In this document: positions 2,189-63,442 of the stretch, one piece after another
Layout of the letters: every line of letters starts with the position of its first letter
Position numbering within the stretch: position 1 is the first letter of the stretch
Assembly (NCBI GenBank): GCA_965261945.1
Contig: CBDHEF010000001.1
Location: forward strand, 463,150-527,149
Reading direction: 5' to 3'
Length of the DNA: 64,000 bases
Source of the DNA: Dehalococcoidia bacterium
GTDB lineage: Bacteria > Chloroflexota > Dehalococcoidia > Lucifugimonadales > UBA3495
Translations under genes and position numbers: made by a program
The notes under the pieces: generated by a model
Seen by the model: the letters and a program-made list of their open reading frames with translations, nothing else
Database searches by the model: none
What the model was told of the DNA's origin: nothing

Positions 2189-2698
2189 AACTAGAAAAAG
2201 CAATGGATGCCATCGCTCTGGCGCGGCGCCACTTCTGGTCGGCGCCGGAGGGTCTTTCACTGTCTGTAGCTGACCCAGGTATTCAGGAACTCCCGGTCGC
2301 TCTATATCATCCGCTTGCAGATTCCCTCGCTTATGCCGCTTGAAAAGCGTAAAGTCCAGGCAGGGAGCGGCTGCTCCACGAAGCGCCCCGGCAGGCAGTA
2401 GCCGAAGACCAGGACCGACCTGGCGACACCATCGTCGTCGCCCTGTACACCGACGGCAGGGGAAGCCGCGACAATTCAGGCACGGACGGCTCCCAATAGC
2501 CCCGGCGCACTGTAGACCGGCGGGCAAACCTGATACCCGGAAACTCCCAGCCACCCCAAACCAGAAACCTGTAGAGTCCTCCACCTGCTCCACTTGAAAT
2601 GCGCCCGGTCCAGGCAAGCTATTCTTGACTTCCACAAGCCCTTGCCAAACCCCGGCCCGATACCCCACACTCACCTCCACACAGCATCGGACAACGCC

Positions 2699-5600
2699 AT
2701 GCTCATCATGCACGCCGCCCAAGTAAAAGGAAACCTCGTCCTCTGGAGCGAGGACTCCGAACCACGCCTGACGTCGCCCGACCGGCAGCTGGATGGGAAA
2801 CACTCCTACAGCGCCCAAGCCCAGGTCATAGCCGAAGCAATCGGCCTCGAAACGGTCGACACCAGCTTCGCCAGCGCGACCGCCTGGCTGCCCAGCCGGG
2901 GCGATGCCCCCGTGCCCTCCAGCCCCATGGCCGGCCCAATGCCCGGGTCGCGGGCCAAGCCGCGCATCAGGCCATGGACCGTGACAACGCTCTGCCTGAC
3001 ACCGGAGCAAGCCGTCCAGCTGCTACAGACGTGGTACGGGCGACAGGTCGTGAAACCCGGCGTCGCCATCGGGACCGATCTGTCCTACTGGACCCACGCT
3101 CTGCAACTGGCGGTCTCCCTGACGGCCCGTCAGCAGTTCCTGCCCAGCTTGTCCGAACGGGGCGGACAGACCATGGCGACTTGGATTCCGGTGTTCATCG
3201 GCGAGGATGCCCACCGGCTGACCGAGCTGGCCGGACTGATGCCGGCGTCGGCCAGGGCGCTCACCGGCGCAGGGGCCACCGAACCACCGGCCACACCGGC
3301 CCAGGCGGTCCTCAGGGAGTTCATAACAACCCAGATCGACCACCTGGCCCGCGCCGGAACGGATACCGAACACCGGGCGCAACCGCAGTTCGACTCTGCC
3401 CACGACGCCTGGCTGTCCGCCCTGTGCCATACCAACCCGGAGGTCCGGAGCAACCCGGCACAGCTCCAGCAACTCCGCCGCCAGGTCGCCGAATGGCAAA
3501 GGCCCCTCGCCATCGCGGCCAACTCTCCATACCGCCTCTGCCTCAGGCTGGAGGAGCCGCCCGAACCCAGCCCAAGCGACGAGGCGCCGGCCATCCGGCA
3601 GGATGACTGGTACCTGCGCTACCTGCTCCAGCCCCACGACGACCAGAGCCTACTGCTCCCCGCCGAGGCCGTGTGGAAAAATCGGGTCAATGGACCCCAC
3701 CCGGACTTCAACCCCGCCGAGTTCCTGTTGAATTCCCTGGCCCAGGCCGGCTCAGTGTGCCCACCCATCACCGACAGCCTGAAGCGCAGGCAACCTGCCG
3801 GATACCGGTTGAACACCGAGGAGGCCTACGGGTTCCTGGAAAGCCAGGCCGTTGCGCTGCAACAGGCTGGGTTCGGTGTGCTCCTGCCCGCCTGGTGGAC
3901 CCGTCAGGGCGCCAAGACCAGGCCCGGCATCCGCGCCAGGACCAAGACCCCTACCATGCAGGGCGGCTCCGGCATGACCATGACCTCCCTGATCGACCTC
4001 GACGTCGAGATGGCCCTGGGCGACGAGACCATATCCGCGCAGGAACTGGAGCAGCTCGCCGAGCTGAAGGTGCCGCTGGTGCGGTTCCGTGGCCAGTGGG
4101 TGGAAATCAACGCCGACGAAATCCGGGCGGCCGCTGATTTCTGGCGCAACAGGGAGCAGGTCAGTCTGCGGGAGGTCGTGCAGATCGGGCTGGGCGCCGA
4201 CCAGCGGGCCGAGGACGACAATGTCTCCCTCGCGGCCGACGACTGGCTCCGTGATCTCCTGGAACGCCTACAGCAGAAGGGCCGGATTGAGCAGATGGAC
4301 GCCCCCAAGGACTTCGCCGGCCAGCTCCGTCCCTACCAGCAGCTGGGCTACTCGTGGCTGGCCTTCCTCAGGGACTGGGGATTGGGAGGATGCCTGGCCG
4401 ATGACATGGGCCTGGGCAAGACCGTACAGGCCCTGGCCGCCCTGCAGCTGGACCGACAGGAGGGCAACGACCGGCCCAACCTGCTGGTATGCCCGACATC
4501 CGTGATCAACAACTGGGAGCGGGAGGCTGCCAGGTTCACACCGGACCTGCCTGTGCTGCTGCACCACGGCTCGAACCGCCAGGGCGGGGCTGCCTTCCGT
4601 AACCAGGCTGACGGCCACCATCTGGTCATCACCAGCTACGGTACCATGCACCGGGACCGGGGCCTGCTCGGCACCGTACCCTGGCGGGCGGTCATCCTGG
4701 ATGAGGCCCAGAACATCAAGAACCCGGCGTCCCAGCAGGCCCGGGCCGCCCAGGGCCTCCCGGCCGACTACCGGATCGCCCTCACCGGCACGCCGGTGGA
4801 GAACCACGTCGGCGACCTCTGGTCCATCATGCAGTTCCTGAACCCAGGCCTCCTGGGTTCCCAGGCCGAGTTCAAGCGCAACTACTTCCAGCCCATTCAG
4901 ACCGACCGGGACGGAGCGGCGGCGGCTCGGCTCCAGAAAGCCACCGGGCCCTTCATCCTGCGCCGACTCAAGACCGACCGGTCCATCATCGATGACCTGC
5001 CCGACAAGAACGAGACCAAGCAGTACTGCAGCCTGACCAGGGAGCAGGCAACACTCTACCAAGCCGTGCTGCGCGAGGCGGAGACCCGGCTGGAATCCGC
5101 CGAGGGCATGAAACGCCGGGGGTCGATCCTGGACACCCTGACCAAGCTCAAGCAGGCCTGCAACCACCCCCGCCAACTGCTGGGCGACAACTCCGCCATA
5201 GCGGGCCGTTCAGGGAAGCTGGCCCGCCTGCAGGAAATCCTCGATGAGGTATTGCCCGCCGGCGACCGGGTGCTGGTGTTCAGCCAGTTCGCCGAGATGG
5301 GAGCCATCCTGCAACAGCACGTGCAGGAGACCCACGGCCTCGAAACGTCCTTCCTGCACGGCGGCGTCACCCGGAAACAGCGGGACCTGATGGTACAACG
5401 CTTCCAGGACGACCCCGACGGCCCGCAGGTGTTCGTCCTGTCCCTCAAGGCCGGGGGATTCGGCCTCAACCTGCCCCGGGCCAACCACGTGATCCACTAC
5501 GACCGTTGGTGGAACCCAGCCGTGGAGAACCAGGCCACCGACCGGGCCTTCCGCATTGGCCAGACCAGGGACGTCCACGTCCACAAGCTGATCTGCGCCG

Positions 5601-5752
5601 GCACACTGGAGGACCGCATCGACTTAATGATCGAAATCAAGCAGGAAACCGTTGACCAGGTGGTGGGAACCACCTCGGTACGGTGGCTTACCGAGCTCTC
5701 CAACGCCGAACTCCGGGACGTGCTTGCCCTCAGCGCGAGCCCGGTGGACTGA
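2699..5752 (+). CDS. SNF2-family helicase with long N-terminal DUF3670-like region
   Basis: ORF 2594..5752; the likely start is ATG 2699 (MLIMHAAQVKGNLVLWSED). SNF2 motifs present: LADDMGLGKT (I), ILDEAQNIKN (II), LTGTPVEN (III). Helicase-C motifs present: VLVFSQF, LSLKAGGFGLNL, HYDRWWNPAVENQATDRAFRIGQ (VI). Confidence 0.9.
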   Translation: MLIMHAAQVKGNLVLWSEDSEPRLTSPDRQLDGKHSYSAQAQVIAEAIGLETVDTSFASATAWLPSRGDAPVPSSPMAGPMPGSRAKPRIRPWTVTTLCLTPEQAVQLLQTWYGRQVVKPGVAIGTDLSYWTHALQLAVSLTARQQFLPSLSERGGQTMATWIPVFIGEDAHRLTELAGLMPASARALTGAGATEPPATPAQAVLREFITTQIDHLARAGTDTEHRAQPQFDSAHDAWLSALCHTNPEVRSNPAQLQQLRRQVAEWQRPLAIAANSPYRLCLRLEEPPEPSPSDEAPAIRQDDWYLRYLLQPHDDQSLLLPAEAVWKNRVNGPHPDFNPAEFLLNSLAQAGSVCPPITDSLKRRQPAGYRLNTEEAYGFLESQAVALQQAGFGVLLPAWWTRQGAKTRPGIRARTKTPTMQGGSGMTMTSLIDLDVEMALGDETISAQELEQLAELKVPLVRFRGQWVEINADEIRAAADFWRNREQVSLREVVQIGLGADQRAEDDNVSLAADDWLRDLLERLQQKGRIEQMDAPKDFAGQLRPYQQLGYSWLAFLRDWGLGGCLADDMGLGKTVQALAALQLDRQEGNDRPNLLVCPTSVINNWEREAARFTPDLPVLLHHGSNRQGGAAFRNQADGHHLVITSYGTMHRDRGLLGTVPWRAVILDEAQNIKNPASQQARAAQGLPADYRIALTGTPVENHVGDLWSIMQFLNPGLLGSQAEFKRNYFQPIQTDRDGAAAARLQKATGPFILRRLKTDRSIIDDLPDKNETKQYCSLTREQATLYQAVLREAETRLESAEGMKRRGSILDTLTKLKQACNHPRQLLGDNSAIAGRSGKLARLQEILDEVLPAGDRVLVFSQFAEMGAILQQHVQETHGLETSFLHGGVTRKQRDLMVQRFQDDPDGPQVFVLSLKAGGFGLNLPRANHVIHYDRWWNPAVENQATDRAFRIGQTRDVHVHKLICAGTLEDRIDLMIEIKQETVDQVVGTTSVRWLTELSNAELRDVLALSASPVD

Positions 5753-5791
5753 AGAAGACAGCCCAAGCTCTTTTTAATAGCGGGAAGGACG

Positions 5792-6688
5792 ATGAGTTAC
5801 TACGACTACGTGTACACCAAGCCAATCGAAGTCAGAGGCGGCATCCGGGCCGGGTCGAAACGCGGCGCCTTCGGCTCCAACTGGTGGGCCAAGCGGTGGC
5901 TCCAGACCCTGGAGGAGTTCCAGATCGGTAGCCGCCTTGATCGCGGCCGATCCTACGCCCGCAGGGGACAGGTCATGTCCGTCGACATTCAGCCCGGCGG
6001 CGTCACGGCCAAGGTGCAGGGCTCCCGCAAGCGTCCCTACAACGTGAGCATCGAGGTCCGGACCATCAGCCCACCGGACTGGGAGCGCCTCCAGGCGGCC
6101 ATGGCGGAACAGCCCATCATCGCCGCCAGCCTGCTGTCGGGCCGTATGCCGGACAACATCGAGGACACCTTCCGGGTCGCCGGCCTGTCCATGTTCCCTG
6201 AAAGGCGGGGCGACCTGGAGACGGATTGCTCGTGTCCCGACTGGTCCAACCCCTGCAAGCACGTCGCCGCCGTGTATCTCCTGCTGGGCGAGGAGTTTGA
6301 TCGGGACCCCTTCCTGATCTTTCGGATGCGGGGCATGGACCGGGAGGACCTGCTGGGCCCGGAGTTCCGCCGCTCCGCCCACACCCTGGAGGGACCCACG
6401 CTGCCCGCCGAGCCCCTGCCGCCGGAACCCGGGGAGTTCTGGCCCAACCCGCTGACGGCGTTGCGGGAAAAGGACCATGCGGGCCCGGCCGTCATACCCG
6501 ACCTGGCTGCCGCCCTGCCCCAGCAGCTGGGCCGGTTCCCCCTCTGGCAGGGCAACCGGGAATTCGTCCCGGCAATGCAGGACATCTACCGCGCCGCTTC
6601 GCAACGGGCCGTTGAGATCCACATGGGGCCGGCGGAACCGCCTGACAACCCAGCACCGGAGAGGAGGCGGAGTAGGCAAGGGACATAA
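5792..6688 (+). CDS. SWIM zinc-finger protein (SNF2 partner)
   Basis: CSCPDWSNPCKH is a CxC..CxH SWIM finger. The gene starts 40 nt after the SNF2 stop on the same strand. The N-terminal WWAKRWLQTLE...GRSYARRGQV region is typical of bacterial SWIM proteins paired with SNF2 ATPases. Confidence 0.9.
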   Translation: MSYYDYVYTKPIEVRGGIRAGSKRGAFGSNWWAKRWLQTLEEFQIGSRLDRGRSYARRGQVMSVDIQPGGVTAKVQGSRKRPYNVSIEVRTISPPDWERLQAAMAEQPIIAASLLSGRMPDNIEDTFRVAGLSMFPERRGDLETDCSCPDWSNPCKHVAAVYLLLGEEFDRDPFLIFRMRGMDREDLLGPEFRRSAHTLEGPTLPAEPLPPEPGEFWPNPLTALREKDHAGPAVIPDLAAALPQQLGRFPLWQGNREFVPAMQDIYRAASQRAVEIHMGPAEPPDNPAPERRRSRQGT

Positions 6689-6971
6689 CCGCGGTTCCCG
6701 TCCGCCAGCACTTCAGTGACTGGTTTGAGGTGGCGGTCCCGGCCTGACGATACGGCACCCGGTGCGACGTCTCTCGAAGGAGCGGCGCGCCCGTTCGTTG
6801 AGTAGCTGTGGCTGGAGGATGCCCAAAGGCGCAACGATCAAGCCATACGCTCCCGTGCTAAGCGTCGGACCGCCCTTCGTACGCCCGGAACGCCCCTTCT
6901 TGAACCGTCGTTTGAATGCTAATAATCCGGCGGCTCCGGGGCAACAGGCCGCCAGATCTAGTTGTCGTTGA

Positions 6972-8759
6972 TCAGGGGTGCACCCCTTTGCTCTCCTTCC
7001 AGCTCTCGGCCTGGCGTAGCATCTCCGAGGCGTTGGTGCGGGTCGCGCCGCTATCGGAGCCCAGCATCTGACTGAGTTCCGTCACTCTGTCCTCGCCGTC
7101 CAGAACCTCCACCGATGTCGCGGTCCTATCATGCGAGGCAAGTTTCGTAACCTTAGCGTGGTGGTCTGCGTAGCACGCTATTTGCGGTAGGTGAGTTACG
7201 CATAGCACCAGGTGGCTCTTGGATAGACCCCATAGTTTCTGCCCCAGGACACTCCCGACTCGACCACCTACACCCGCATCGACCTCGTCGAACACGAGTA
7301 TTGGGATCTGGTCAGCCGTGGATAGGATGGTCTTTATGGCGAGCATCAGCCTGGAGGCTTCTCCCCCCGAGGCGATCCTGGCCAGGGGCCGCGGCGGTTC
7401 GCCCGGGTTCAGTGAGATCAGGAATTCCACGGAGTCTATACCGGTCTCGTTGAACGCGAGGCGCCTGATAGACTCCCCACCCAAAGAAGGTGTTGAGTAC
7501 GGGGCCGGATCCGCGGTCCCAACCGGCACACCGTCCTCAGAGTCTGTTTGACGGATATCCACAAGCACCTGGGCATACCCGAAGGCCAGCCCGGCGACCT
7601 CTTCCTCTATCGCATCAGCCAGGCCCCTTGCTGCGTGTTGACGGGCTTCGGAGAGCTGACCCGCAAGCCTGCCGACCCGCCTTCGAAGGTCCATCTCTCG
7701 GGCCTTCAATCCCTCCGCACGTTCTTCCCTGTGAAGTAGCTTTTCCAGCTCCTGCGAGGCCCTCTCGCCAAAGGCCAGGATTTCTTCGATGGTGCTGCCG
7801 TACTTCCTTTTGAGACGGTTGATCAAGTCCAAACGCTCCTCAAGCTCATAAAGACGGTCCGGGCTGTATTCGATGCCGTCACGATAGCTTCGGAGCGCAC
7901 GCGCCAACTCGTCCACCTGGTGCATCAAGGCGTCCACCGACTCAAGGTTCTGTCTCAATGAGGGGTCCAATTGCTCCAATTGGGAAAGGTCCTTGGACAC
8001 CTGCCCAATAAGGTCCATTGCCGATTCGCGCCGGTCGAAGCCATCGTATAACGCTCTGTAGGCGTGGTCGGACAGTGTGATAATTCGTTCCGCGTTGGCG
8101 ACCCGGTCCCTCTCCTGGGTCAGGTCATCATATTCAGTCGGACGTAGATTTGCTGTGCTGATCTCTCCTACCTGATACCTCAGATAATCCACCCGTTGAG
8201 CAACCTCTGCTTCATCCTCCCGCAGCCGGTTCAGCTCTTGGCGCATCTCAGTTAGCTGGCGGGCCCCCTCTGCAACGTCGGTGCGAAGCTGCCATAGCCC
8301 ACCATACTTGTCCAGGATATCCAGGTGCTCACGTACGCGGAGAAGGGATAAGTGCTGATTCTGGCCATGGATGTCCACCAGGTGTTGGGCCAGTGTGCTC
8401 AACAGTCTGAGAGGCACGATTCGCCCGTTCACACGGCAGGTGTTGCGCCCATCCAGGTTGACCTCCCGAGCGAGAATTACCTCCTCTTCGCCAACGTCAA
8501 TTTCGTACTCATTCAGAGCAACCTTGATTTTTTGAGAGATGTCGCCGCCAAGCAGGAAGACGCCCTCCACTCTGGACTGGCGTGCACCGGAACGTACCAT
8601 GCCAACATCGGCGCGTCCCCCAATTAGAAAGCCCAGCGCATCCACGATGATCGACTTGCCGGCCCCCGTTTCCCCGGTCAGCACACTAAAGCCGGGCGCC
8701 AACTCAATGTCGAGCTGTTCTATGGTGGCGAAGTTTGTGACACTAAGGAGTCTGAGCAT
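6972..8759 (-). CDS. recN: DNA repair protein RecN
   Basis: MLRLLSVTNFATIEQLDIELAPGFSVLTGETGAGKSIIVDALGFLIGGRAD (Walker A). A long coiled-coil middle follows. The C-terminus has ASGGEASRLMLAIK and ILVFDEVDAGVGG (Walker B). Start moved from 8822 to ATG 8759 to match the usual ML..L.I.NFA N-terminus. Confidence 0.95.
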   Translation of the reverse strand: MLRLLSVTNFATIEQLDIELAPGFSVLTGETGAGKSIIVDALGFLIGGRADVGMVRSGARQSRVEGVFLLGGDISQKIKVALNEYEIDVGEEEVILAREVNLDGRNTCRVNGRIVPLRLLSTLAQHLVDIHGQNQHLSLLRVREHLDILDKYGGLWQLRTDVAEGARQLTEMRQELNRLREDEAEVAQRVDYLRYQVGEISTANLRPTEYDDLTQERDRVANAERIITLSDHAYRALYDGFDRRESAMDLIGQVSKDLSQLEQLDPSLRQNLESVDALMHQVDELARALRSYRDGIEYSPDRLYELEERLDLINRLKRKYGSTIEEILAFGERASQELEKLLHREERAEGLKAREMDLRRRVGRLAGQLSEARQHAARGLADAIEEEVAGLAFGYAQVLVDIRQTDSEDGVPVGTADPAPYSTPSLGGESIRRLAFNETGIDSVEFLISLNPGEPPRPLARIASGGEASRLMLAIKTILSTADQIPILVFDEVDAGVGGRVGSVLGQKLWGLSKSHLVLCVTHLPQIACYADHHAKVTKLASHDRTATSVEVLDGEDRVTELSQMLGSDSGATRTNASEMLRQAESWKESKGVHP

Positions 8760-9360
8760 GACTATGTCCAAAACTACACTCCTCCGAGCAGCGCCCTTTG
8801 GTCTAACCAAATTGACGGTCACCTTTGGCGCTCATGCAAATGCAGCATCCAGATGTGACGAGGGACAGATCCCCGTTTCCACGCCTGTTGCCTCACCAGA
8901 TGATGTTACCGACATTCTAGCCGCTGATTCCTGTTACGACCAAAGCTGATTCGCTTCTGTAACGCTGTTCCACTGCACGCTCATCGGAATAAGCGTAGGC
9001 CAGTCTCATGGCCATGACTCCGCGCCAGCCCTTCACCCTGCGCTACAGGGTCCGCAGCTGGGCGTCGCTGCACCGCCCGGATGGGCTGACCGAAGCCGTG
9101 CCAGCAGATCCTTGGCTTTGATGTTGGCGTTGGTCTCGGGGTCATTCTGAGGCCACAACAACAGGTCGCACCACACATCATGGGTTCGGCGATCCTTGCT
9201 GCTTTTTGGCCTACTGCGACCCAGTTGACGTCGGTCTGCCGCACCCAGAACTACCCTGGTGCGGGGATTTTCCCACAACGCAATCAAGACACCAGTTGAT
9301 GTTGAACACCTTGCCCGCCTGCCCGAAACCCCCTGCCTTGAGCTGTCGTTGTAATATTAG

Positions 9361-10767
9361 TGCTACAGTCGCAGATTAGAAAGTCGCCGTTTGTAGCGGC
9401 AACGTCGGGCTCGGGCTTAGTGGCGGCGTCTCCACCACGACCAGTACAGGATGAAATCAGGCGGTTGGTTCTCTGTCCATATAAGGCGGGTCAGCAACCG
9501 GCGCACCTCCGGCGCTGTCATGGGAATCAGCTGTTCGTCCGGGCCGTAGCAGCCCCCCCTTCCCCTTGTTCCATCGCCTGATGCTTGATCACGGACAGAT
9601 ACGCGTGGGCCAGCATCGCCAGGGTGATGTGCCGGTGCCAGCCGTCCCACCTCCGCACCTCGTACTGGTCCAGCCCCACCTGTCCCTTGGCCTCCTCGAA
9701 GCATTCCTCTATGGCCCACCGGGTCCCGGCCACCCTCGCCAGTTCCCCCAGGGACGTTCCCGCCGGGCCGTAACAGACGTAGCAGGCCAGTTCCCCGGGG
9801 TTGGCCAGACTGCGCCGGGCCAACAGCCAATAGCCCTTGCCAGGCTCCCTCAGGGGACGTATATCCACCGCGGCCCAGTCGTATACCCGTGGTCCCTTGG
9901 CTCCGTCCCCGGCGCTGCATCTCACCCAGGCGCATTCCTCAACCCCGGACGCCAGCCGGTCAGCCCTCACCTGACGCGGCCCCCTGTCAGTCAAAGCCCA
10001 CAGCTTCTCGCTGCGCTTGATGGCCAGCACGTGGGGAACGCCCTCTCGCTCCAGCCACAGCCGCAGGTTGCGGTCGTTGCCGTACACCTCATCCCCGGCC
10101 ACCCAGGCGAAGGGGATTCCCGACTCCAGCGCCCGCTCCAGCATCAGCTGCGCCAGTCGGGGCTTGGTCCGAAAGCCGACATTCGCAGGCACTCCGGCCT
10201 CCCGCCGGCGCTCCCGGTCCTCCGCCCACACTTGGGGCAGGTACAATTCCCGGTCCAGCAGAGTCCTGCCATTGACACTGGCATAGGCCAGAAATACTCC
10301 TGCCTGACAGTTCTCGATCCGGCCTGCCGTGCCGCTGTACTGCTGCTGCACCCCAACCGACTTGTCCCCTTTCTTGAGGAATCCGGTCTCGTCCACCGCC
10401 AGAACTGCGCCAGCGTCGGCCAGATGCTCGGCCACGTAGGATTCAAGTTATCGCGAACCAGGTCCGCGTCTCACCGGGAGTTGTACAGCAGGCGCTGCAC
10501 CCCATCGGGAGTGGCGTCGCCCGCCTGCTCCGCCAGTTGCCAGCCGTTCTTCCGCTCCACGAGGCTCAGCAATCCTCGCAGGTAGTCCAGAACCCGTCGG
10601 CGCGGCTCGGGACGCCGGAACCTCCCCGCGATGCACTCATGTACCCGGTCGATGCCCTCGGCCCACCGGGCCACCTCCGCCACCTCATCCCTGTGCCCTG
10701 CCACAGCCTCACCTCACCACCCGTTGATTGCCCCAATTCCAGCCGTTTTCAATCTGCGACTGTAGTA
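9361..10767 (-). mobile_element. IS701-family insertion sequence (inactive copy)
   Basis: Terminal inverted repeats ctacagtcgcagatt (9363-9377) and aatctgcgactgtag (10751-10765). TTAG occurs on both outer flanks (9357-9360 and 10768-10771), a possible 4-bp target duplication. The element encloses the transposase pseudogene. Confidence 0.8.
9527..10704 (-). pseudogene. IS701-family DDE transposase, interrupted
   Basis: The N-part ORF 10471..10704 (...ERKNGWQLAEQAGDATPDGVQRLLYNSR) ends at a TGA where homologues have Trp (..SRW DADLVRD..). A 1-nt frame change follows, before YVAEHLADAGAVLAVDETGFLKKGDKSVGVQQQYSGTAGRIENCQ (ORF 9527..10435). Confidence 0.85.
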
Positions 10768-11296: not shown

Positions 11297-11953
11297 ATGA
11301 ACGATGAAAGGCAGGACATAACCAGCATAGACCAGATGGACGGCTGGCCCGCAACACCCGGCGCCCACCGGTTCAAGCGCGCCGCCCAGTTCTTCTCCGA
11401 GCTCGATGTCCACATCCTCGACGAACCGAGGCCCGAAACCGGCGACCCCGGCCTCGCCCACGACACGGAGATGGTCGAGCTCACCTACTCCGCCATGCTC
11501 TTTGACTCGACCGAGGTCATGCAGAACCTGCCCCCGGACATCCAGGAGGGCATGGACCACCTCACAGGCGTCCTCGAGTCCCTGGACACGAACCTCACCT
11601 TCGCCGGCTGCATATTCGACACCGACGACGAGGTCCCGGGCATGGTCTACCCATGCGCCATTGCCATCCTGTCCCGCGACCCCGACTGGATGGGGGTCTC
11701 AACCCTCCTGCCACTCCTGAAGGACAAGCGCATCATCCTCTGGGAGTCCCCAGACCACCCGGGCCAGCTGGGCCCATTCCTGGCCCTCGCAGGCCCAACC
11801 ACCACCAATCCCCGTCCAGTCCTCCCACCGCCGCCGGGCCGGCCGCACTATTCGCAACCGTGGCGCGCCTGGCACGCCGCCGCCTCCTGCGAGTGGCGCC
11901 CGACCTCCACCAACAGTGCCCTCATGCAGAGCATCCAGAACATACTGCCCTGA
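11297..11953 (+). CDS. hypothetical protein (island gene)
   Basis: Inner ATG 11297 (MNDERQDITSIDQMDGW...) of ORF 11063..11953. The composition is acidic and non-repetitive, unlike the Pro/Arg-rich upstream part. No family recognised. Confidence 0.45.
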   Translation: MNDERQDITSIDQMDGWPATPGAHRFKRAAQFFSELDVHILDEPRPETGDPGLAHDTEMVELTYSAMLFDSTEVMQNLPPDIQEGMDHLTGVLESLDTNLTFAGCIFDTDDEVPGMVYPCAIAILSRDPDWMGVSTLLPLLKDKRIILWESPDHPGQLGPFLALAGPTTTNPRPVLPPPPGRPHYSQPWRAWHAAASCEWRPTSTNSALMQSIQNILP

Positions 11954-12000
11954 CCTCCCCCACTCCATCCATCCAACACGAGGAGCGCCACAACCCCACC

Positions 12001-12760
12001 GTGAAAACGAAAATTGACATCACAGTCCTGTCCCTAGGCGCCGGTATCCAGTCCTCGGCCATGGCGCTGCTCATAGACCGCAGCCTCCTCCCAGGCATAC
12101 CCATCCCGGACTACGGCCTGTTTGCCGATACCTTTGCCGAGCCCCAACACGTCTACGACACCGTCGAATGGCTCCGCACCCTCCTCTCCTTCCCGATCCA
12201 CACCTGTAGCTTCGGTGACCTCGGGAAGAACACCTGGAAGGCGATCACGGCCATGCCCGTACCCGAGCGCGGCCACAGCCAGGCCGGTTACATCGACCTC
12301 CCCGTCTTCTCCGAATCAGGAATGGGACGCCGCCAATGTACCAGTCACTATAAAGTTAAACCCATCAAGAGGGAGATACGCTGCCTCGCCGGTTCCGCCC
12401 CACCCGCACTCACCGCCACCCAGTACCTGGGCATATCCACCAACGAAACCAGGCGGGCCAAACCCTCCAAGGACCGCTGGATCACCAACCGCTTGCCGCT
12501 CATCGAACACGGCTGGAGCCGCCAGCAGCTCTCCAACTGGCTCGACGCCGAATACCCGGGCCACCCCGTCTCCCGCTCGGCATATCTTTTTGTCCGTTCC
12601 ATTCCCAAGCCGATTGGAATGAACTGAAAACCCGCTATCCCGCGCTCTACGCCGACGCCCTGGCCATGGACCGTCAGATGGCCGAACACCCCCGCGGCCC
12701 CTGGCGACTCCGCGCCGGAGGCCTCGACCGCTTCGACCAGAAGACCGAACTCCAGCCCCC
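12001..12760 (+). pseudogene. PAPS-reductase-like (PP-loop) protein of phage/plasmid type, frameshifted near the 3' end
   Basis: GTG 12001: VKTKIDITVLSLGAGIQSSAMALL (SxGxxxS PP-loop-like), ...CTSHYKVKPIKR..., ...YLGISTNETRRAK. At the T5 run 12587-12591 the frame slips: SRSAYLF then CPFHSQADWNELKTRYPALY continues in the next frame. The 3' end is undefined because no in-frame stop is nearby. Confidence 0.6.
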
Positions 12761-12849
12761 TCCTCTTCACTACCTAACCCGCAATCCCAGGCCAACCCCG
12801 AACCCCCATAATCCCGACAACACCCACACAGCAAGCCGGAGAGGCAGAC

Positions 12850-13278
12850 ATGCCAAGACGAGACGACATCTCCCTCATCGAATCCCTCCTCTACAACATG
12901 ACCTCCGTCTGGCCCCTCCGCTCCGGCACCCTCCGCATACACCTTCCCGCCCACGACCCGCTGGGAGACCCGGCCCCCATCCACGTCACCCGTACCGGCG
13001 ACGACGCACTCACCGTCGACGGCGGCGGCGCCGTCGCAGGTATGCTCTTCTCATCAGACACCGACGCCCCCGCCACCCCCCAGAGAGAACTCCTCGACCG
13101 CCTAGCCGCCTGCGGCGCCGCAATCAATTTCGACGACGGCGCCATCGAGATCCACACCGACCAGCCCGGCCTCGGACTCGCCATCCTGAACATGCTGGCC
13201 CTCAGCATCACCATGCTCACCGCGTCCCCGCACCTGCCCCAGAGTCCAAAACAAGATGCAGACCAACACGGAGAATGA
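12850..13278 (+). CDS. hypothetical protein (island gene)
   Basis: 142-aa ORF with SD-like GGAGAGG 6 nt upstream of the ATG. Composition is balanced, in contrast to the overlapping Arg/Pro-rich frame. The stop overlaps the next start (ATGA at 13275-13278). Confidence 0.55.
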   Translation: MPRRDDISLIESLLYNMTSVWPLRSGTLRIHLPAHDPLGDPAPIHVTRTGDDALTVDGGGAVAGMLFSSDTDAPATPQRELLDRLAACGAAINFDDGAIEIHTDQPGLGLAILNMLALSITMLTASPHLPQSPKQDADQHGE

Positions 13279-14273
13279 CCATCATGTTGCATCAGACCAC
13301 CTACATCATCACAGCCGAAACCACCCCCTTCCCCGCACAGCCAAGCCAGCACCAGCTCGATCTCGCCGCCGCCCAGGCGCGGCAGATCGCCCTCCAGGTC
13401 GTCGCCAATATGCCAGACGATCACCCCGCCTATCCCGAGACCCTGTCCCTCGGCGGCCGCTCCTACCGCTTCATCCAGGGCAACCTGAATACCAATCACG
13501 AGGTCTTCGCCGGCAAGCCCCCAGCCCACTGGCCACAGATGTCCATCCAGTTCTGGAGCCAGAACATCGGCGCCGCCAAGACCGAGCCCGTCCCCGACGA
13601 AGTCCTCCATAACTGCTGGAACCACACCGACAGCCTGATCACCCTGGCCCTGGAGCACCACGACACCCACCGGCTCCGCCCCTACCCCCAGATGATCATC
13701 ACCCCCGCCGACGACTGTCAGCACCACATGGGCTACCCCGACACGGACGTCTTCGACGACCCGGCCCCCGGGGGCACCGTCGCCCTCTACCTGAAAGGCG
13801 ACCCCGCAACCTCCCATCACCGGGCCATACAAGCACTCCGGGACATCGACGCCGCCTTCTTCCGCCGCGACTACCTCCAGACCCTGGCCTCCTTCCCCGG
13901 CCACATAGTCATGGAGATGGACTGGAATCTGCAGCAACACACAAAAGCACAAACCCTTCCAGGAGTCACCCAGTTGCCCTCCCGAAAAAACATATCAAAC
14001 CCGGACCGCCCCCTGAGCTACCCCGAGTTCCTCGAATGGAAACGCCAGTCCCTCACCGACAAGGGCGAACCCCTGCCCTTCCTCACGGAACAGCCACGCC
14101 CCTGGACCCACGGCGCCTGCGCCCACTGCGGGCAACCCCTGCCGAAAACGGCCCCCGCCTGCGCCACCTGCAACAACCGCCTCTGCACCGGCTGCAACCG
14201 CACCCACACCTCCACGTCCCGCTTCGTCACAGACCGGTTCCGCTGCCCGGTCCAACGGTTCATTACCAATTGA
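13275..14273 (+). CDS. hypothetical protein with C-terminal Cys-rich (zinc-ribbon-like) tail
   Basis: Inner ATG 13275 (MTIMLHQTTYIITAE...) of ORF 12666..14273. The C-terminus reads HGACAHCGQPLPKTAPACATCNNRLCTGCNRTH. It is translationally coupled to the previous ORF. Confidence 0.55.
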   Translation: MTIMLHQTTYIITAETTPFPAQPSQHQLDLAAAQARQIALQVVANMPDDHPAYPETLSLGGRSYRFIQGNLNTNHEVFAGKPPAHWPQMSIQFWSQNIGAAKTEPVPDEVLHNCWNHTDSLITLALEHHDTHRLRPYPQMIITPADDCQHHMGYPDTDVFDDPAPGGTVALYLKGDPATSHHRAIQALRDIDAAFFRRDYLQTLASFPGHIVMEMDWNLQQHTKAQTLPGVTQLPSRKNISNPDRPLSYPEFLEWKRQSLTDKGEPLPFLTEQPRPWTHGACAHCGQPLPKTAPACATCNNRLCTGCNRTHTSTSRFVTDRFRCPVQRFITN

Positions 14274-14298
14274 GAACACCCCCACGGAGGACCCGGCA

Positions 14299-15665
14299 AT
14301 GCCCACCCGCGCCGACACATTCAGGGACACCGCCCGGCAGGCCCTCCACAACCGGTCCCAGGACGTTCTGAAAGCCTGGCTGCGGGACCTGCCGCACACC
14401 CACCGGCTCCACCATCTCCTTCGAGATCCCGAATGTCCCTGCCCGCAGCTTCGAGGACGCCGCCAACTACCACCCATTGCCCATCTCCCTGAACGGCGAA
14501 CAGCTCCCCCGGCACAAATTTCTCAACACCTCCCACGCCGTCCGCAACTGGCGCGGCCTCCGCATCGCCGTCGGCCACGGCCACCGCTCCCGGCTGAACT
14601 TCCACGGCGTCGTCGCCACCTCCCAGGAACTGCCCGTGGTCCATGCCCTCACCTCGCTGCTCAGCACCGACATCGACGTCGGCGACTGCCCCGAGCTCCA
14701 GCTCACTCTCCCCGCCCGCAAGAACATCGTCCAGACCCCCTTCTTCGAAGAGATCAAGGACGCCTGCCTCCAGTTCATATACGAGGCCATCCGCGACGCA
14801 CCCCAGCCCATAGACGTGCCTCACTCCGTCCAGCAGGACGCGCCTCAGGTTCGGGGTCGTCCTCCCGGACGCACAGCCCCTGCTCAAGGCCTGGACCCCA
14901 GAGACCGGCAACTCCATGGACGACAACCATATCCGCGACCGGAGCCAGGTCACCCCGGCCTCGATCCTCATCGACGCCGAGCTCCCGCCCGCGGACCAGC
15001 AAGCCCTCTCCCGCGCCGCCGGACGCGCCGGCATCGCCGACCAGCTCATGCAGGCTGACCCCAATCTCCGGGGCTATCCCTGGTACGACTCGCTCACCCG
15101 CGTATCCGACATCACCATCACCATCTCCGCCGACGGCCGGAACCACAACCTCCAGCGCCGCCGGGACGCCAAGGAGCCCTTCGCCGCCCCCCGGCCGGAC
15201 CGGCTCACCATCGAGCTGCACACCCTCAACACATCAACCAAGCCGCCCCGCATCTCCCTCCCCGCCGACGTGGTGTTCTTCAACGAGGACGAGGACCACA
15301 TGGACCACAACCTCCCCCTGGTCACCAAGAGCAGCACCATCGCCCCCGCCGACCTGTCCGATCTCCTCTACGACGCCTTCTTCGACCCCTCCGACGACCC
15401 CGAGGCCAACAGCCACGACACCCAGTCCCAGGACCACCGCGACGCCAACTACGCCATCGCAGTCGGCCTCCTGCACTCCCCCGAGGAGTCCCTGCGCTCC
15501 GCCATCGAGGACGCCGTCCACCGCCACGTCGCCTACCGCCTCCCACACTCCTTCAACGCCGAGATCTCCATCGCGCGACACCCCCTCCACCACACACGCA
15601 CCGTGTCCGTCCTCCTCAGCCCGGCCCCCGACCGGCACGACACCACGAAAGACACCGCGGACTGA
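14299..15665 (+). pseudogene. hypothetical protein spread over three frames
   Basis: MPTRADTFRDTARQALHNRSQDVLKAWLRDLP (frame 1) is followed by RTPTGSTISFEIPNVPARSFEDAANYHPLPISLNGEQLPRHKFL...VPHSVQQDA (ORF 14477 frame). Then comes RLRFGVVLPDAQPLLKAWTPETGNSMDDNHIRD...(ORF 14916..15665). Breaks lie near 14400 and 14840. No family assigned. Confidence 0.45.
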
Positions 15666-15724
15666 CCGGCAACCCCGTTTCCAATGCCGGTTCGACACCC
15701 ACCCACCACCCAGGAGAGAAACGA

Positions 15725-16499
15725 GTGAACTTCATGATGCAGGCCACCGACAGACAGGTCTCCATAGTCGAAAACATCATCGGCAAACGCCTGACACCCA
15801 TCTCCATCAGCGGGTCCGGCTCCGTGGCCAACCACGACCACGGCCCCGCGGTACTGTCCCAACTCCGTGAGGACATCTCCCACACCACCGGCGTCACCGC
15901 CGATTCCATGACCAGATGGCAGGATCTCGACCGACAGGCCCAGAACGAGATAGCCCTGATCACAGCCGACTCCGCCCCGTGGGCCATGTACAAGCGCATT
16001 CACGACTCCGCCGCCGAGGACCTCTCCCCCGAGACCTACCAGAAGATCCTCGGCCCCCGCGGCCAGTGCCCCCCACCCCGGCCCGGAATCACCGGAACAC
16101 CAATCAGAAGGAAACACAATAACCACAAACAGAGAAACCCCGGCCTACCCCCAGGAGGACCTGGACGAGCTGCTCAAGCTCAGCCACGAGAACTCTTACC
16201 GCACCTACAGCATCTGCTCCAGGTTCGCCTCCGACATACGGGACGCCGTCGCCGCCCGCCGCGACCACACGGGCGTCGCCTTCCAGTGGCACAGCCACCT
16301 CGGACCCAGCGCCGAGGGCGCATCCTTCGGAAACGGCTGGGACGACTACCTCGGAGACCTCCGCCAGAAGGCCCAGAACGCCGTAGACCGGGCCGAAGCC
16401 GCCGACGGTCACGACCGCTACGAGCTGTTCCCCATCGCCAGACTCCACATCAACCTCTACCACGCCGCCGCCGCTCACCGCCTCGCCATCGAGCCCTGA
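15725..16499 (+). pseudogene. hypothetical protein, probably frameshifted
   Basis: The plausible N-part MNFMMQATDRQVSIVENIIGKRL...SPETYQKILGPRG becomes Arg/Pro-rich after ~16050. A start-less frame then reads ...PQEDLDELLKLSHENSYRTYSICSRFASDIRDAV...LYHAAAAHRLAIEP and stops at 16497-16499. C-rich runs at 16050-16080 are the likely slip site. Confidence 0.4.
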
Positions 16500-17462: not shown

Positions 17463-19007
17463 GTGAAATACGACTATGTCATCCTGGGCGCCGGATCCGC
17501 CGGATGTACGCTGGCCAGCCGCCTGTCGGAAGACCCGACCAAGAGTGTGCTGCTGCTGGAAGCGGGGCCGGACTACCCGGAATTCGAGATATATCCCGAC
17601 GACCTGAAGTTCGGTTACGACCAGACGGCCTCGGCCATCGACGCGCCGCACAACTGGTCCTTCCAGGGCAATACCACGGCGTTGCAGACCGAGCCGATGC
17701 CAGTGCCCCGCGGGCGGGTGGTCGGCGGCTCCAGCGCCATCAACGGCCAGGTGCTGTTGCGCGGCGTGCCCGAGGACTATGACGCCTGGGCCGCACTGGG
17801 CAACGACCAATGGGGGTTCACCAGCGTTTTGCCCTACCTGCGTAGGCTGGAAAGCGACATGGACTTCGGCGCCGACGACTTCCACAACTCCGAAGGTTTC
17901 ATCCCGGTGCGCCGTTTCGCGAAGGAGACCTGGCTGCCAGCGCAGCAGGCATTTTACAACGCCGCCCGCACCGCCGGGTTCCCCGACGATCCCGACATGA
18001 ATCACCCCGAGTCGGGCGGCGTCGGCCCCATCCCCATGAACAACCCCAACGGTGTGCGGATGAGCACCTCTCTGACCTTCCTCAGCGCCGCCCGGCACCG
18101 CCTAAACCTGACGGTCAAGGCCAACGTAACCGTGCATCGAGTGCTGTTCGAGGGCAACAAAGCCGTCGGCGCAGAGGTGGAGAGCGGCGACGAGAGGTTT
18201 ACCGTCGAAGGCGATCAGATTATTCTCAGCTCCGGGGCAATCGCGTCGCCGCAGATTCTGATGCTGTCGGGCGTGGGGCCTGCCGGAATCCTGAACGGCC
18301 TGGGCATCCCGGTAGTCCTCGAAGCGCCCGGCGTGGGGCAGAACCTGCGCGACCATCCCAACATCCGCGTTCCCATCGAGGTCAAGGAAGACTTCCCCTT
18401 GGACCCGAAGGACCCGCGCACCCAGGTGGCGTTGCGCTACACCGCCACCGGCTCCGACCTGCGCAACGACATCCAGATTATCGCATCGTCCTTCTCATCG
18501 CCCATCTCCGGCGACCCACTGGAGGCCGAGGGCATCCGCTTCACCGCCATTCTGGAGTTGGCCTACGGCAAGGGCCACATGAGGATTACCTCAACCGACC
18601 CCAACGTCCAGCCCGAGCTCAACTACAACTACTTCGCAGACGACTCCCGCGACCTGGCCCGGATGCGCGAGGCAGTGCGGCTGTGCGTGTCGTTCCTGGA
18701 CCACCCGGACTACGCCGACATCGTCAAGGGGCTGATAGAGCCGACCCCGGCCGACCTTGAGTCGGACGATGCCCTGGACAACTGGCTGATGCGCACCGTG
18801 TCAACCTCGCAGCACATCTCCGGCACCTGCAAGATGGGCACGGACAACGACCCGCTGGCGGTGGTGGACCAGCAATGCCGCGTCAAGGGGCTGGAAAACC
18901 TGCGGGTCATCGACGCCTCCGTGATGCCCGACTGCATCCGCGCCAACACCAACTGCACCACCATAATGATTGCCGAGCGGATGGCGGACATCATCAAAGG
19001 TGAGTAA
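17463..19007 (+). CDS. GMC-family (choline dehydrogenase-like) FAD oxidoreductase
   Basis: GTG start. YDYVILGAGSAGCTLASRLSED FAD-binding motif, GGSSAINGQV, and C-terminal HISGTCKMG...VIDASVMP. Confidence 0.9.
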   Translation: MKYDYVILGAGSAGCTLASRLSEDPTKSVLLLEAGPDYPEFEIYPDDLKFGYDQTASAIDAPHNWSFQGNTTALQTEPMPVPRGRVVGGSSAINGQVLLRGVPEDYDAWAALGNDQWGFTSVLPYLRRLESDMDFGADDFHNSEGFIPVRRFAKETWLPAQQAFYNAARTAGFPDDPDMNHPESGGVGPIPMNNPNGVRMSTSLTFLSAARHRLNLTVKANVTVHRVLFEGNKAVGAEVESGDERFTVEGDQIILSSGAIASPQILMLSGVGPAGILNGLGIPVVLEAPGVGQNLRDHPNIRVPIEVKEDFPLDPKDPRTQVALRYTATGSDLRNDIQIIASSFSSPISGDPLEAEGIRFTAILELAYGKGHMRITSTDPNVQPELNYNYFADDSRDLARMREAVRLCVSFLDHPDYADIVKGLIEPTPADLESDDALDNWLMRTVSTSQHISGTCKMGTDNDPLAVVDQQCRVKGLENLRVIDASVMPDCIRANTNCTTIMIAERMADIIKGE

Positions 19008-46456: not shown

Positions 46457-47992
46457 ATGAAATACGATCACGTAGTAGTCGGCGGCGGCACCGCCGGTTG
46501 CATCGTGGCAGCCCGGCTGTCGGAAGACCCGGAGCGCTCGGTGCTGCTGCTGGAAGCCGGCCCCGACTTTCCCGACTTCACCCAACTCCCCGATATGCTC
46601 AAGTTCGGCTGGGGCACGGTGAACCTCGAGGCCCGCGCCGCCGGTTCGCCCTACAACTGGTCCTTCACCGGCACCGCCACGCCCGAACAGGGGCCGATGC
46701 CCGTCCCGCGCGGCAAGACCCTGGGCGGCTCCAGCGCCATCAACGGCCAGACCTTCATCCGCGGCGCGCCCGAAGACTACGATACGTGGGAGTCCTGGGG
46801 CAACGAGGGCTGGTCGTACATTAACTGTCTGCCCTACTTCCGCAAACTGGAGAACGACGCCGACTTTCACGACGACTTCCACGGCACCAACGGGCCGGTC
46901 CCCGTCCGCCATCACCCCCGAGAGACCTGGCCGCCGTCGCAGGAGGCATTCTTCCAGGCTGCCACCGACGCCGGTTACCCCTTCCATCCCGACGTGAACC
47001 ACCCGGAGGCCACCGGCATCAGCCTGCGTGCAGAGAACAACATCGACGGTGTGCGGATGAGCATGGCTCTGGCCTACATCGACTCGGTGCGCCACCGGCT
47101 GAACCTGACCATCCGCGCCAACGTCCAGACGAACCGCGTAGTGATCGAAGGCGGGCGCGCCGTCGGCGTAGAGGTTGAGAGCGGAGGCGAGACCTTCATC
47201 GTCGAGGGCGGCGAGGTCATCCTGTGCGCCGGAGCAGTGGCCTCGCCGCAACTGCTGATGCTGTCGGGCCTCGGTCCCGCCGACCAGCTTGAGGCGCAGG
47301 GCATTCCCGTAGTGGTGGAACTGCCCGGCGTGGGGCAGAATATGCGCGACCACCCCAACGTGTCAGTGCGTTACCTTGTCAAGGAAGGCGTTCCCCAAGA
47401 CCCCAACGGCATGAGGGCCTTGCGGCTGCGTTTTACTGCCTCCGGTTCGCAGACGCCCAACGACATGATACTTTCTCCGGCGTCCCTGAACACCGTGGTT
47501 CGGGACGACAACCCGGCCCATTCCGTAAACTGCGGACTGTACCTCGCGGCAGGCAAGGGCGAGCTGCGGCTCGTGTCCGCCGACCCGCACACCCCGCCCA
47601 GCATGGACTACCGCTACCTGGAAGAGGACTGGGACCGCGAAAGGCTGCGGGAGAGCGTCCACCTCTGCGTATCGCTGCTGCAACATAGCGCCTACGACAA
47701 CGTCATTGAGGAGATTACCGCCCCCACGCCCGCAGACCTGGAGACCGACGAGGCGCTGGACGGCTGGCTGCGCCGCAACATCAGCACCTCCTACCACATT
47801 TCCGGCACTTGTAAAATGGGGCCGCCGGATGACCCCATGGCCGTAGTTGACCGGCAACTCCGTGTCCGCGGCGTCTCCAACCTGCGCATCGCCGACGCCT
47901 CGATCATGCCCGATGTGGTCCGCGCCAACACCAACGTAACCACGATGATGATAGCCGAGCGAGCAGCCGACTTCATCAAGGCGGGTAGCTAA
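46457..47992 (+). CDS. GMC-family FAD oxidoreductase (paralog of 17463..19007)
   Basis: MKYDHVVVGGGTAGCIVAARLSED, GGSSAINGQ, HISGTCKMG...IADASIMP. It is colinear with the first GMC protein. Confidence 0.9.
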   Translation: MKYDHVVVGGGTAGCIVAARLSEDPERSVLLLEAGPDFPDFTQLPDMLKFGWGTVNLEARAAGSPYNWSFTGTATPEQGPMPVPRGKTLGGSSAINGQTFIRGAPEDYDTWESWGNEGWSYINCLPYFRKLENDADFHDDFHGTNGPVPVRHHPRETWPPSQEAFFQAATDAGYPFHPDVNHPEATGISLRAENNIDGVRMSMALAYIDSVRHRLNLTIRANVQTNRVVIEGGRAVGVEVESGGETFIVEGGEVILCAGAVASPQLLMLSGLGPADQLEAQGIPVVVELPGVGQNMRDHPNVSVRYLVKEGVPQDPNGMRALRLRFTASGSQTPNDMILSPASLNTVVRDDNPAHSVNCGLYLAAGKGELRLVSADPHTPPSMDYRYLEEDWDRERLRESVHLCVSLLQHSAYDNVIEEITAPTPADLETDEALDGWLRRNISTSYHISGTCKMGPPDDPMAVVDRQLRVRGVSNLRIADASIMPDVVRANTNVTTMMIAERAADFIKAGS

Positions 47993-62257: not shown

Positions 62258-63442
62258 ATGGAGCATTTTGCCATTTGGAGGATTCCAGAAGGGATCAGGG
62301 GAAACGGCATTAACTATTGGACATTATTGCGATGACCATCTGCGCGGTCGTTGGGGGCGCTGAGGGTTGGGACGATGTGGAGTTGTTCGTCCAATGCAAG
62401 TACGAATGGTGTCCTGAGATTTCTGGATCTGCCCCACGGGGTTCCCTGCTCTGACACCTTTGCGCGGGTGTTCAGCGGCATTGACCCGGAACAGTTCCGA
62501 AACTGCATCATGGACTGGGTAAACAGCGTCAGCCAGCTGACTCAGGGCCAGGTGATTGCCCTGGACGGCAAGACCTTACGGCGGTCCCACGACCGCCCTT
62601 CGGGAAAGGCGGCCATTCACATGGTCAGCGCCCGGGCATCGGAGAACTCCCTGGTGTCGGGTCAGGTCAAAGTGGATGAGAAAACCAATGAGATCACGGC
62701 CATAGCGGAGTTGCTCAATCTGTTGGATGTGTCGGGCTGCATCGTGACAATTGACGCCGACAATTGACGCCATGGGCTGCCAGAAGAAGATAGCCCAGCA
62801 GATTGTGAGCCAGGAAGCCGATTATATTCTGGCAGTGAAGGAAAATCAGGGAAAGTTGCCGGAGGATGTGGCCGACCTGTTTTCCTGCGGACAGAGGACC
62901 GGGTTTGCTGATATACAGCGCGATTTCTGCCAGACCGTGAGCAGCGGGCGCGGACGCGCTGAAACCCGGCGCTGTTGGACCATTGACGATCCGGAGCAGT
63001 TATCCTACCTGGATACCCGAGGCGATTGGCCTGGGTTGCGGAGCATCGGGATGGTCGCGGCGCGACGATGTCAAGACGATGTCAAGGGGAACAGGTGCCG
63101 GAGGAAACCCGCTACTACATCTCCAGTCCTGAGTCGGATGCCCATCGATTCTTGCGGGCAACTCGAAGCCATTGGGGTATCGAGAACCGGGTGCGCTGGA
63201 TACTGGACGTGTCCTTCCGGGAAGACGAAAGCCGGGTAAGAACCGGAAACGCCCCGGAAAACCTCGCGATAGTCCGGCACATGGCCCTCAACCTGCTGCG
63301 CCAAGACCGAACCTCCAAAACCTCCATCAAAGCCAAACGCAAATTGGCAGGCTGGGACAACGACTACCTGCTGTCCATCCTCTCCAATCAGAATGCGGTA
63401 GCCCTGCCTGGAGTCGCTCTTGCGCCAGCGCGAGAGACTTGA
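62258..63442 (+). pseudogene. ISAs1-family transposase, multiply frameshifted
   Basis: MEHFA...; LLDIIAMTICAVVGGAEGWDDVELF; FLDLPHGVPCSDTFARVFSGIDPEQF; VIALDGKTLRRSHD; IVTIDAMGCQKKIAQQI..DYILAVKENQ; YYISS...SHWGIENRVRWILDVSFREDESRVRTGNAPENLAIVRHMALNLL. The pieces are spread over three frames. Two of the breaks are tandem duplications at 62746-62771 and 63064-63085. Confidence 0.8.

Follow-up and report, generated by a model that had tools for sequence, protein, structure and literature searches.

The SSO1653 subfamily, one of the two prokaryotic groups of Snf2 proteins, includes sll1366 from Synechocystis and YwqA from B. subtilis (PMC2677860). Its founder, SsoRad54 (SSO1653) from Sulfolobus solfataricus, is a double-stranded DNA (dsDNA)-dependent ATPase, which alters DNA topology and stimulates strand exchange by RadA (PMC2677860), and which Iyer et al. 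placed among those prokaryotic Snf2 ATPases that are associated with SWIM proteins (PMC5512222). As stated in a preliminary description of the DNA analysed here, the Snf2-SWIM association is old and its function unresolved, and YwqA is still referred to as 'poorly characterized' (PMC7385302). The present work concerns a stretch of 64,000 nucleotides (nt) from the genome of an uncultured Dehalococcoidia bacterium (contig CBDHEF010000001.1, positions 463,150 to 527,149; hereafter "the window", in whose own coordinates all features are given), which harbors an intact copy of this pair, already known as an association from the literature (PMC5512222). We propose, and give the proposal about an even chance, that the pair is a dispensable DNA translocase engaged in genome maintenance.

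The Snf2-family ATPase of the window (SSO1653/SsoRad54 subfamily, HelZ/YwqA type) is encoded by positions 2699–5752 of the forward strand and comprises 1017 amino acids (aa). The open reading frame (ORF) is uninterrupted over 2594–5752 (+) and would yield 1052 aa if read from a TTG codon; since all Snf2 homologues start with MLI(L/M)HAAQ, the ATG at 2699 was taken as the genuine start. Pfam searches left the N-terminal region (aa 1–364, 2699–3790, +) without family assignment, identified the DUF3670 domain (PF12419, E-value 8.5e-41) at aa 365–496 (3791–4186, +), in agreement with a guess made earlier for this part of the protein, and delineated the ATPase core (4334–5560, +), with SNF2-rel_dom at aa 546–825 (E-value 1.2e-66) and Helicase_C at aa 842–954 (E-value 8e-21). 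The motifs DDMGLGKT (Walker A), DEAQ, TGTPVEN and QATDRAFRIGQ are all present. The search of the PDB identified the SsoRad54 core (1z63) as the best match by far (aa 532–1013, E-value 7e-143), all other solved proteins being far weaker, and the protein was therefore assigned to the SSO1653 subfamily. The resemblance concerns the core: the solved part of SsoRad54 (1z63 and 1z6a) corresponds to a catalytic core of 500 aa, whereas the window protein is longer by some 540 residues at the N-terminus, DUF3670 among them. Among the NCBIfam models, the best full-length match is NF058637, the 'SCO1167/SCO6262 family helicase' (731 bits over aa 89–1011, cut-off 1200), while the N-terminal half resembles NF058636, the 'sll1366 family intein-prone helicase' (364 bits, cut-off 550). 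As both scores fall under the curated cut-offs, we regard the protein as a member of a related Chloroflexota branch rather than as an equivalog of either family; its closest relatives in the genome collection are loci in metagenome-assembled genomes of Dehalococcoidia (86–88% protein identity). The AlphaFold2 model of aa 1–540 exhibits predicted local distance difference test (pLDDT) values of about 50–94 per block of 10 residues over aa 1–400, most blocks exceeding 80, and a Foldseek comparison of this model with the PDB returned no match at E <0.7.

The second gene (5792–6688, +) encodes a SWIM zinc-finger protein of 298 aa, in which Pfam detected the SWIM domain at aa 140–165 (E-value 1.6e-6). 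Its motif, CSCPDWSNPCKH, contains the CxCx6CxH signature (nt 6227–6262), whose residues C146, C148, C155 and H157 are invariant in an alignment of 45 homologues. The core of its AlphaFold2 model has a pLDDT of about 90, and its sole fold match, a weak one (Foldseek E-value not better than 0.1), is ZSWIM8, another SWIM protein; the search of the PDB with the sequence gave no match. Only 39 nt separate the Snf2 stop codon from the SWIM start, and this gap contains a Shine-Dalgarno-like sequence, GGGAAGGA (5782–5789, +); the two genes are probably co-transcribed as one operon. The pair had been called intact in the preliminary description, and this is indeed the case. The locus thus combines the ATPase core, the DUF3670 extension and the adjacent co-oriented CxCxnCxH SWIM gene that characterize the SSO1653-type Snf2 and SWIM family. 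The ratio of nonsynonymous to synonymous substitution rates (dN/dS) between diverged copies, paralogues included, is 0.21–0.36 for Snf2 and 0.13–0.34 for SWIM, compared with 0.24–0.25 for recN, the gene next to the pair; these values therefore indicate that both genes are functional and that every intact copy is kept by purifying selection, as recN is. Between the window and one related locus (L085) dS amounts to 0.18–0.21 for the pair and to 0.115 for the adjacent recN, a ratio of about 1.7, which might reflect exchange with paralogues or unequal codon bias.

The pairing is strict well beyond Dehalococcoidia. We collected 86 loci (L001 and so on), of which 80 come from one genome per species and 5 from metagenome assemblies, the window being the last. 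A SWIM gene adjoins Snf2 in 82 of them, in Chloroflexota, Actinomycetota, Bacillota, Planctomycetota, Cyanobacteria and others: directly downstream in 48 loci, directly upstream in 32 loci of Bacillaceae (within L039–L083), where the partner has about 540 aa, and in 2 further loci where it was detected by tblastn. The SWIM motif is present in all nine Bacillaceae loci inspected, and in eight of these the end of the SWIM gene and the start of Snf2 overlap by 7–13 nt (six of them by 7 nt), the ninth, L047, having a gap of 942 nt; the overlap implies both co-translation and physical partnership. We take YwqA/YwqB of B. subtilis and HelZ (Rv2101)/Rv2102 of M. tuberculosis to be members of the same family. 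Both are two-gene units of Snf2 and SWIM like that of the window, and the Bacillaceae loci share 37–43% identity with the window over the core. However, the Bacillaceae partner is long and upstream and its locus syntenic, whereas the partner in the window is short and downstream, and the locus has been gained and lost among relatives. Clustering at 50% identity, with one representative per cluster, gave 4,070 sequences for the SWIM partner family (E-values up to 1e-10). Its homologues are present in only 2 of 50,697 phage records, in one locus of IMG/VR, which is itself a Snf2-SWIM pair, and in 145 of 72,556 plasmids (0.2%), mostly large ones or megaplasmids, 56 of them conjugative.

ZorD, DrmD, DpdE and HmaA share the Snf2 ATPase core with the window protein (match to 8qy7 in the PDB, E-value 7e-71), and a link with DISARM or Zorya had been suggested when the locus was first described. 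Against the NCBIfam models the Snf2 protein scored 296 bits for ZorD (cut-off 1500), 87 and 64 bits for DrmD (cut-offs 950 and 610) and 41 bits for DpdE (cut-off 500). PADLOC reported ZorD (448 bits), DpdE (425 bits) and, more weakly, DrmD, but all these matches lie within the ATPase core (aa 430–992). Pfam detected neither the NOV_C domain, which would be expected of an HmaA-like protein, nor any other nuclease domain in the pair, and no ZorABC, DrmABC/methylase or dpd partners were found among the tested ORFs on either side, where the only match to a defence family was a weak SspD-like one (11653–12627). As the scores lie far under the cut-offs and both a nuclease domain (NOV_C or other) and partner genes are lacking, we did not file the pair under any known phage-defence system, none of which it belongs to, and the suggested link is left without support, as the helicase core alone is shared. 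A role of the window copy in defence or in the life of mobile elements is possible, though unsupported by these comparisons.

In the window the pair is followed by a convergent neighbour outside the operon, a genuine recN (6972–8822, −; TIGR00634, 536 bits, cut-off 408). The block 2373–9057, which spans a non-coding leader, Snf2, SWIM, a non-coding tail and recN, is about 92% identical in L012, L085, L090 and L095, and the order Snf2-SWIM-recN is the same in L086 and L087; together with the window, an intact pair adjoins recN in 7 loci. The outer flanks of this recN-linked pair differ every time and are rich in transposases. We conclude from these comparisons that the recN-adjacent copy is ancestral for the close clade and vertically inherited, across about 9% of nucleotide divergence. 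In L004 and L084 the pair resides in unrelated contexts. A fragment of an integrase gene is present upstream of it in L084. The L004 copy was considered as a clean insertion into a short-chain dehydrogenase gene, but the left junction is a truncated, frameshifted fragment with no matching 3' half past the right end, and the idea was abandoned. Altogether the module, about 4.3–4.6 kb long and sharp-ended, occurs in at least five contexts at 87–95% nucleotide identity. A fixed core position beside recN across the lineage, with no variable neighbours, was the pattern that the preliminary description took to speak against a role in defence, and the answer is mixed. The adjacency to recN holds within the close clade, whereas the outer neighbours vary, some relatives have lost the pair and others carry copies elsewhere (L001–L003, L004, L084). 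Given this combination, we regard the pair as accessory and occasionally relocated.

How the neighbourhood behaves in other lineages was assessed by calling ORFs in all loci, clustering them and counting the families common to pairs of loci. At 85–95% Snf2 identity the mean number of shared neighbour families is 0.95 in Dehalococcoidia, where 26 of 39 pairs share none, compared with 8.8 in Bacillaceae, 9 in Paenibacillus and 6 in Acidimicrobiia; in Bacillaceae the pair is in stable synteny even across genera. Loci at 63–69% identity had no neighbour in common, and Snf2 and SWIM are the only genes present in all 18 Dehalococcoidia loci. In a census covering ten Dehalococcoidia genomes, the 148 neighbouring ORFs included many transposases, three DNA methylases, HsdR, GmrSD and a NOV_C giant protein, and also GAPDH, Pnkp, P450s, a DnaE2-type polymerase, oxidoreductases and a flavin adenine dinucleotide (FAD) oxidase, with no recurrent partner gene among them. 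The variability of the flanks may in part be a lineage-wide property of genomes rich in insertion sequences (IS), rather than one specific to the pair. In L088, just upstream of recN (7760–8369), a region saturated with IS fragments encodes a HigB-like toxin with a helix-turn-helix antitoxin and a T1RH-like_C fragment.

How might a translocase of this kind work? By analogy to SsoRad54, the Snf2 motor would bind dsDNA and track along it with ATP, without separating the strands, and would generate torsion and displace or reposition proteins or DNA structures. The SWIM protein would be its dedicated partner, docking most likely on the N-terminal half of Snf2 (aa 1–540, DUF3670 included), and once docked it could hold the motor at, or admit it to, a particular DNA structure or protein. 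The job in the cell would most likely be a non-essential one in genome maintenance, such as help to recombination and repair of the RecA type, as SsoRad54 cooperates with RadA (a bacterial partnership with RadA/RecA being suggested by analogy only), or alternatively the clearing of stalled protein-DNA complexes. In this clade of Dehalococcoidia the unit has been inherited vertically beside recN, is dispensable and was occasionally copied elsewhere. In favour of a maintenance translocase we count the match to 1z63, the strict pairing, the purifying selection, the synteny in other lineages and the vertical inheritance in this one, the lack of an effector domain and the rarity in viruses.

A number of observations weigh against it. 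L088 possesses recN, but the pair has been deleted, with insertion sequences in its place and the last 65 nt of the 3' tail left as a deletion scar; in L091 and L092 Snf2 is cut down to its last 120 codons, the SWIM gene being intact in the former and broken into two ORFs in the latter; and in L093 and L094, which include a circular genome of 3.1 Mb, recN is present and the pair absent without trace. The site next to recN thus shows truncation in one lineage and absence of the pair in two. Conversely, a single contig of 5.1 Mb (ENA ERZ25072670, ctg256825) holds four copies, one (L087) by recN and three (L001–L003) elsewhere, the latter being 91–93% identical at the nucleotide level to the recN-linked copy of their own genome. 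These three are located among genes of Mu-type, IS21 and IS110 elements, resolvases and group II introns, each behind a gene for a Cas4-like protein, and L001 and L003, about 200 kb apart, are parts of a duplicated segment, longer than 20 kb, with genes for a Mu-type transposase, IstB, IS110 and a resolvase. A pair that is kept, truncated, deleted and multiplied among close relatives must therefore be considered dispensable in the clade, and occasionally copied to other sites. Restriction-type genes are found nearby in other loci: L004 has HsdR, L085 a type I methylase, L008 GmrSD and L006 the NOV_C giant protein. Nor does the adjacency to recN weigh much as functional evidence, for the genes are convergent, do not form an operon and are neighbours in one clade only. 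In B. subtilis the ywqA mutant exhibits only mild phenotypes (PMC7385302). Finally, the role ascribed above to the SWIM protein is guesswork; neither this protein nor the N-terminal half of Snf2 has a solved structural relative.

The Cas4-like gene deserves a closer look. It encodes a PD-(D/E)XK protein of 217–218 aa, directly upstream of the pair in two divergent branches, in L001 (9010–9666), L002 (9103–9759), L003 (9010–9666) and the distant L010 (8872–9525), whose version is 47% identical to those of L001–L003, and it may be an optional third component of the pair. A tblastn search of the window with this protein gave no match. A gene of the same length, 218 aa, upstream of the recN-linked copy in L087 was considered as a homologue and turned out to be unrelated to the L001 protein. 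The Snf2 gene of L003 is split, which could represent decay or an error of long-read assembly.

Could the pair rather be a self-contained module of defence against phages or other mobile DNA, in which Snf2 would scan DNA, recognition of a phage protein or of foreign DNA would fall to the SWIM protein, and a separately encoded nuclease, in some copies possibly the Cas4-like protein encoded directly upstream (L001–L003, L010), would act as the effector? The variable copy number and position, with four copies in one genome and at least five contexts, the repeated loss from the recN site, the mere 0.95 shared neighbour families of the Dehalococcoidia loci and the restriction-type genes within 8 kb in L004, L006, L008 and L085 all point that way, and there is precedent for Snf2 proteins at work in Zorya, DISARM, Dpd and Hma (PMC11232893). 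Still, the validated Snf2 defenders are either fused to a nuclease or components of multigene systems, and HmaA, the one that acts alone, needs its fused NOV_C nickase domain (PMC11232893), whereas the window copy has neither a nuclease nor a PD-(D/E)XK gene, its PADLOC matches are confined to the ATPase core, the census revealed much housekeeping (GAPDH, P450s, FAD oxidase) and no recurrent partner, the pair keeps its neighbours in Bacillaceae, Paenibacillus and Acidimicrobiia, and variable flanks may simply be what IS-rich genomes of this lineage have in general. We therefore consider a defence module unlikely. A bolder version, in which the triad of Cas4-like nuclease, Snf2 and SWIM (L001–L003, L010) would constitute an uncatalogued mobile system against phages or plasmids and the window pair its resident form devoid of the nuclease, appears to us quite improbable.

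Two other readings were considered. The pair could be a remodeller like RapA/HepA, which would free and recycle RNA polymerase, whether stalled or post-termination, and lessen conflicts between transcription and replication; YwqA is listed among the translocases reported to interact with RNA polymerase, loss of ywqA cuts viability about 8-fold under PcrA depletion (PMC7385302), and in Firmicutes the family is widely distributed, with conserved synteny. Yet the RapA/HepA model of NCBIfam matched the Snf2 protein with 51 bits, over the C-terminal lobe only (cut-off 576), SsoRad54, the closest characterized protein, works on dsDNA with a recombinase (PMC2677860), the window offers no link to transcription genes, and repeated loss as well as multiple copies would be unusual for a cofactor of the polymerase, all of which makes this reading rather improbable. 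Or perhaps the pair is cargo of mobile elements, serving their replication, recombination, integration or counter-defence, with the recN copy as a domesticated or stranded remnant? The duplication shared by L001 and L003, with its Mu-type transposase, IstB, IS110 and resolvase, the integrase fragment upstream in L084, the SWIM homologues on 145 plasmids (56 conjugative) and the occurrence of SWIM-associated Snf2 ATPases in mobile systems (Iyer et al., PMC5512222) speak for such a role. However, the module has neither a recombinase gene of its own nor terminal repeats, it is very rare in phage collections, the plasmids concerned, for the most part megaplasmids, represent 0.2% of the records, and the recN copy has been inherited vertically over about 9% divergence under purifying selection, so that we find this option very improbable.

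The non-coding sequences on both sides of the pair travel with it. The leader, about 335 nt long (2364–2698, +; delineated by DNA comparison), opens with the palindrome GGAGCGGCTGCTCC (2364–2377) and is about 90% identical in L004, L012, L084 and L085, though their upstream DNA differs. It was examined as a candidate structured RNA or riboswitch and rejected as such (no Rfam match, covariation term +1.48, one pair with a compensatory change); matches to the SOS box (GAAC-N4-GTTC) upstream occurred at chance frequency, none of them inside the leader. The 3' tail of 235 nt (6689–6923, +), likewise defined by DNA comparison, has a sharp right boundary, homology stopping at about 6921–6923 in L001, L003 and L004, as well as between L001 and L087. 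A structured element was considered here too and dismissed: the tail folds into a single long hairpin with z-scores of only −1.4 and −1.7, and has no Rfam match. The shared segment extends from about 2364, but from 2637 in the nuclease-linked copies, to about 6923, and a search for terminal direct or inverted repeats bounding the module found none. Directly upstream of the leader there is an insertion of 192 bp (2173–2363) resembling a miniature inverted-repeat transposable element, with perfect terminal inverted repeats of 14 nt (2173–2186 and 2346–2359; CTGGACTTTACGCT and AGCGTAAAGTCCAG), which L084, L090 and L095 lack at this position.

The surroundings had been depicted in the preliminary description as a scar zone of dead mobile and defence genes, a picture that was largely borne out as regards the transposases and recN. 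To the left of the pair lies an IS1182-type transposase pseudogene (379–1719, +; matches to DUF772 and DDE_Tnp_1_6 on split ORFs), which requires three reading frames to be aligned with an intact copy of 460 aa; to the right, beyond recN, lies an IS701/DDE_5 transposase pseudogene with one frameshift (9530–10692, −). The supposed cas1 fragment and integrase remnant were not confirmed, the ORFs in question between 1 and 2600 being without family match, and of the decayed defence genes supposed on the right there remains the weak SspD-like match of ORF 11653–12627 (PADLOC, E-value 8.8e-10). This ORF is the first of three large ones (11653–15870, +) in a region of strongly negative GC skew (about −0.3), the other two (12666–14273 and 14299–15870) having no match in Pfam, PADLOC or NCBIfam. 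Fragments of ISAs1/Y4rL_C-type transposases are located at 8920–9057 (−) and 62717–62879 (+), the former marking the right breakpoint (9057) of the block common to L012 and L085. As a small recN-adjacent gene of L085 appeared to be split over these two fragments, a large inversion with a breakpoint at 9057 was considered; it was rejected because the piece at 62717–62879 has an identity of only 70% and is embedded in another ISAs1-type transposase, the fragments thus being paralogous scraps. The only long internal repeat of the window is formed by two paralogues of a GMC-oxidoreductase gene (17464–18997 and 46458–47979; 66% DNA identity).

Snf2-SWIM pairs are among the commonest uncharacterised helicase systems of prokaryotes, their function having been a question ever since the first account of the SWIM domain, and the comparison presented here amounts to a natural experiment, in which the pair has been kept, truncated, deleted, multiplied or joined by a nuclease in Dehalococcoidia, as opposed to its fixed place in Bacillaceae. 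For annotation it carries a warning, namely that database matches to ZorD, DpdE or DrmD on members of the Snf2-SWIM family reflect the shared ATPase core alone. It also singles out specific variants, the pair as opposed to the triad with the nuclease; and if the triad should prove to be an immune system after all, the common bacterial Snf2-SWIM pairs might have begun as immune sensors.

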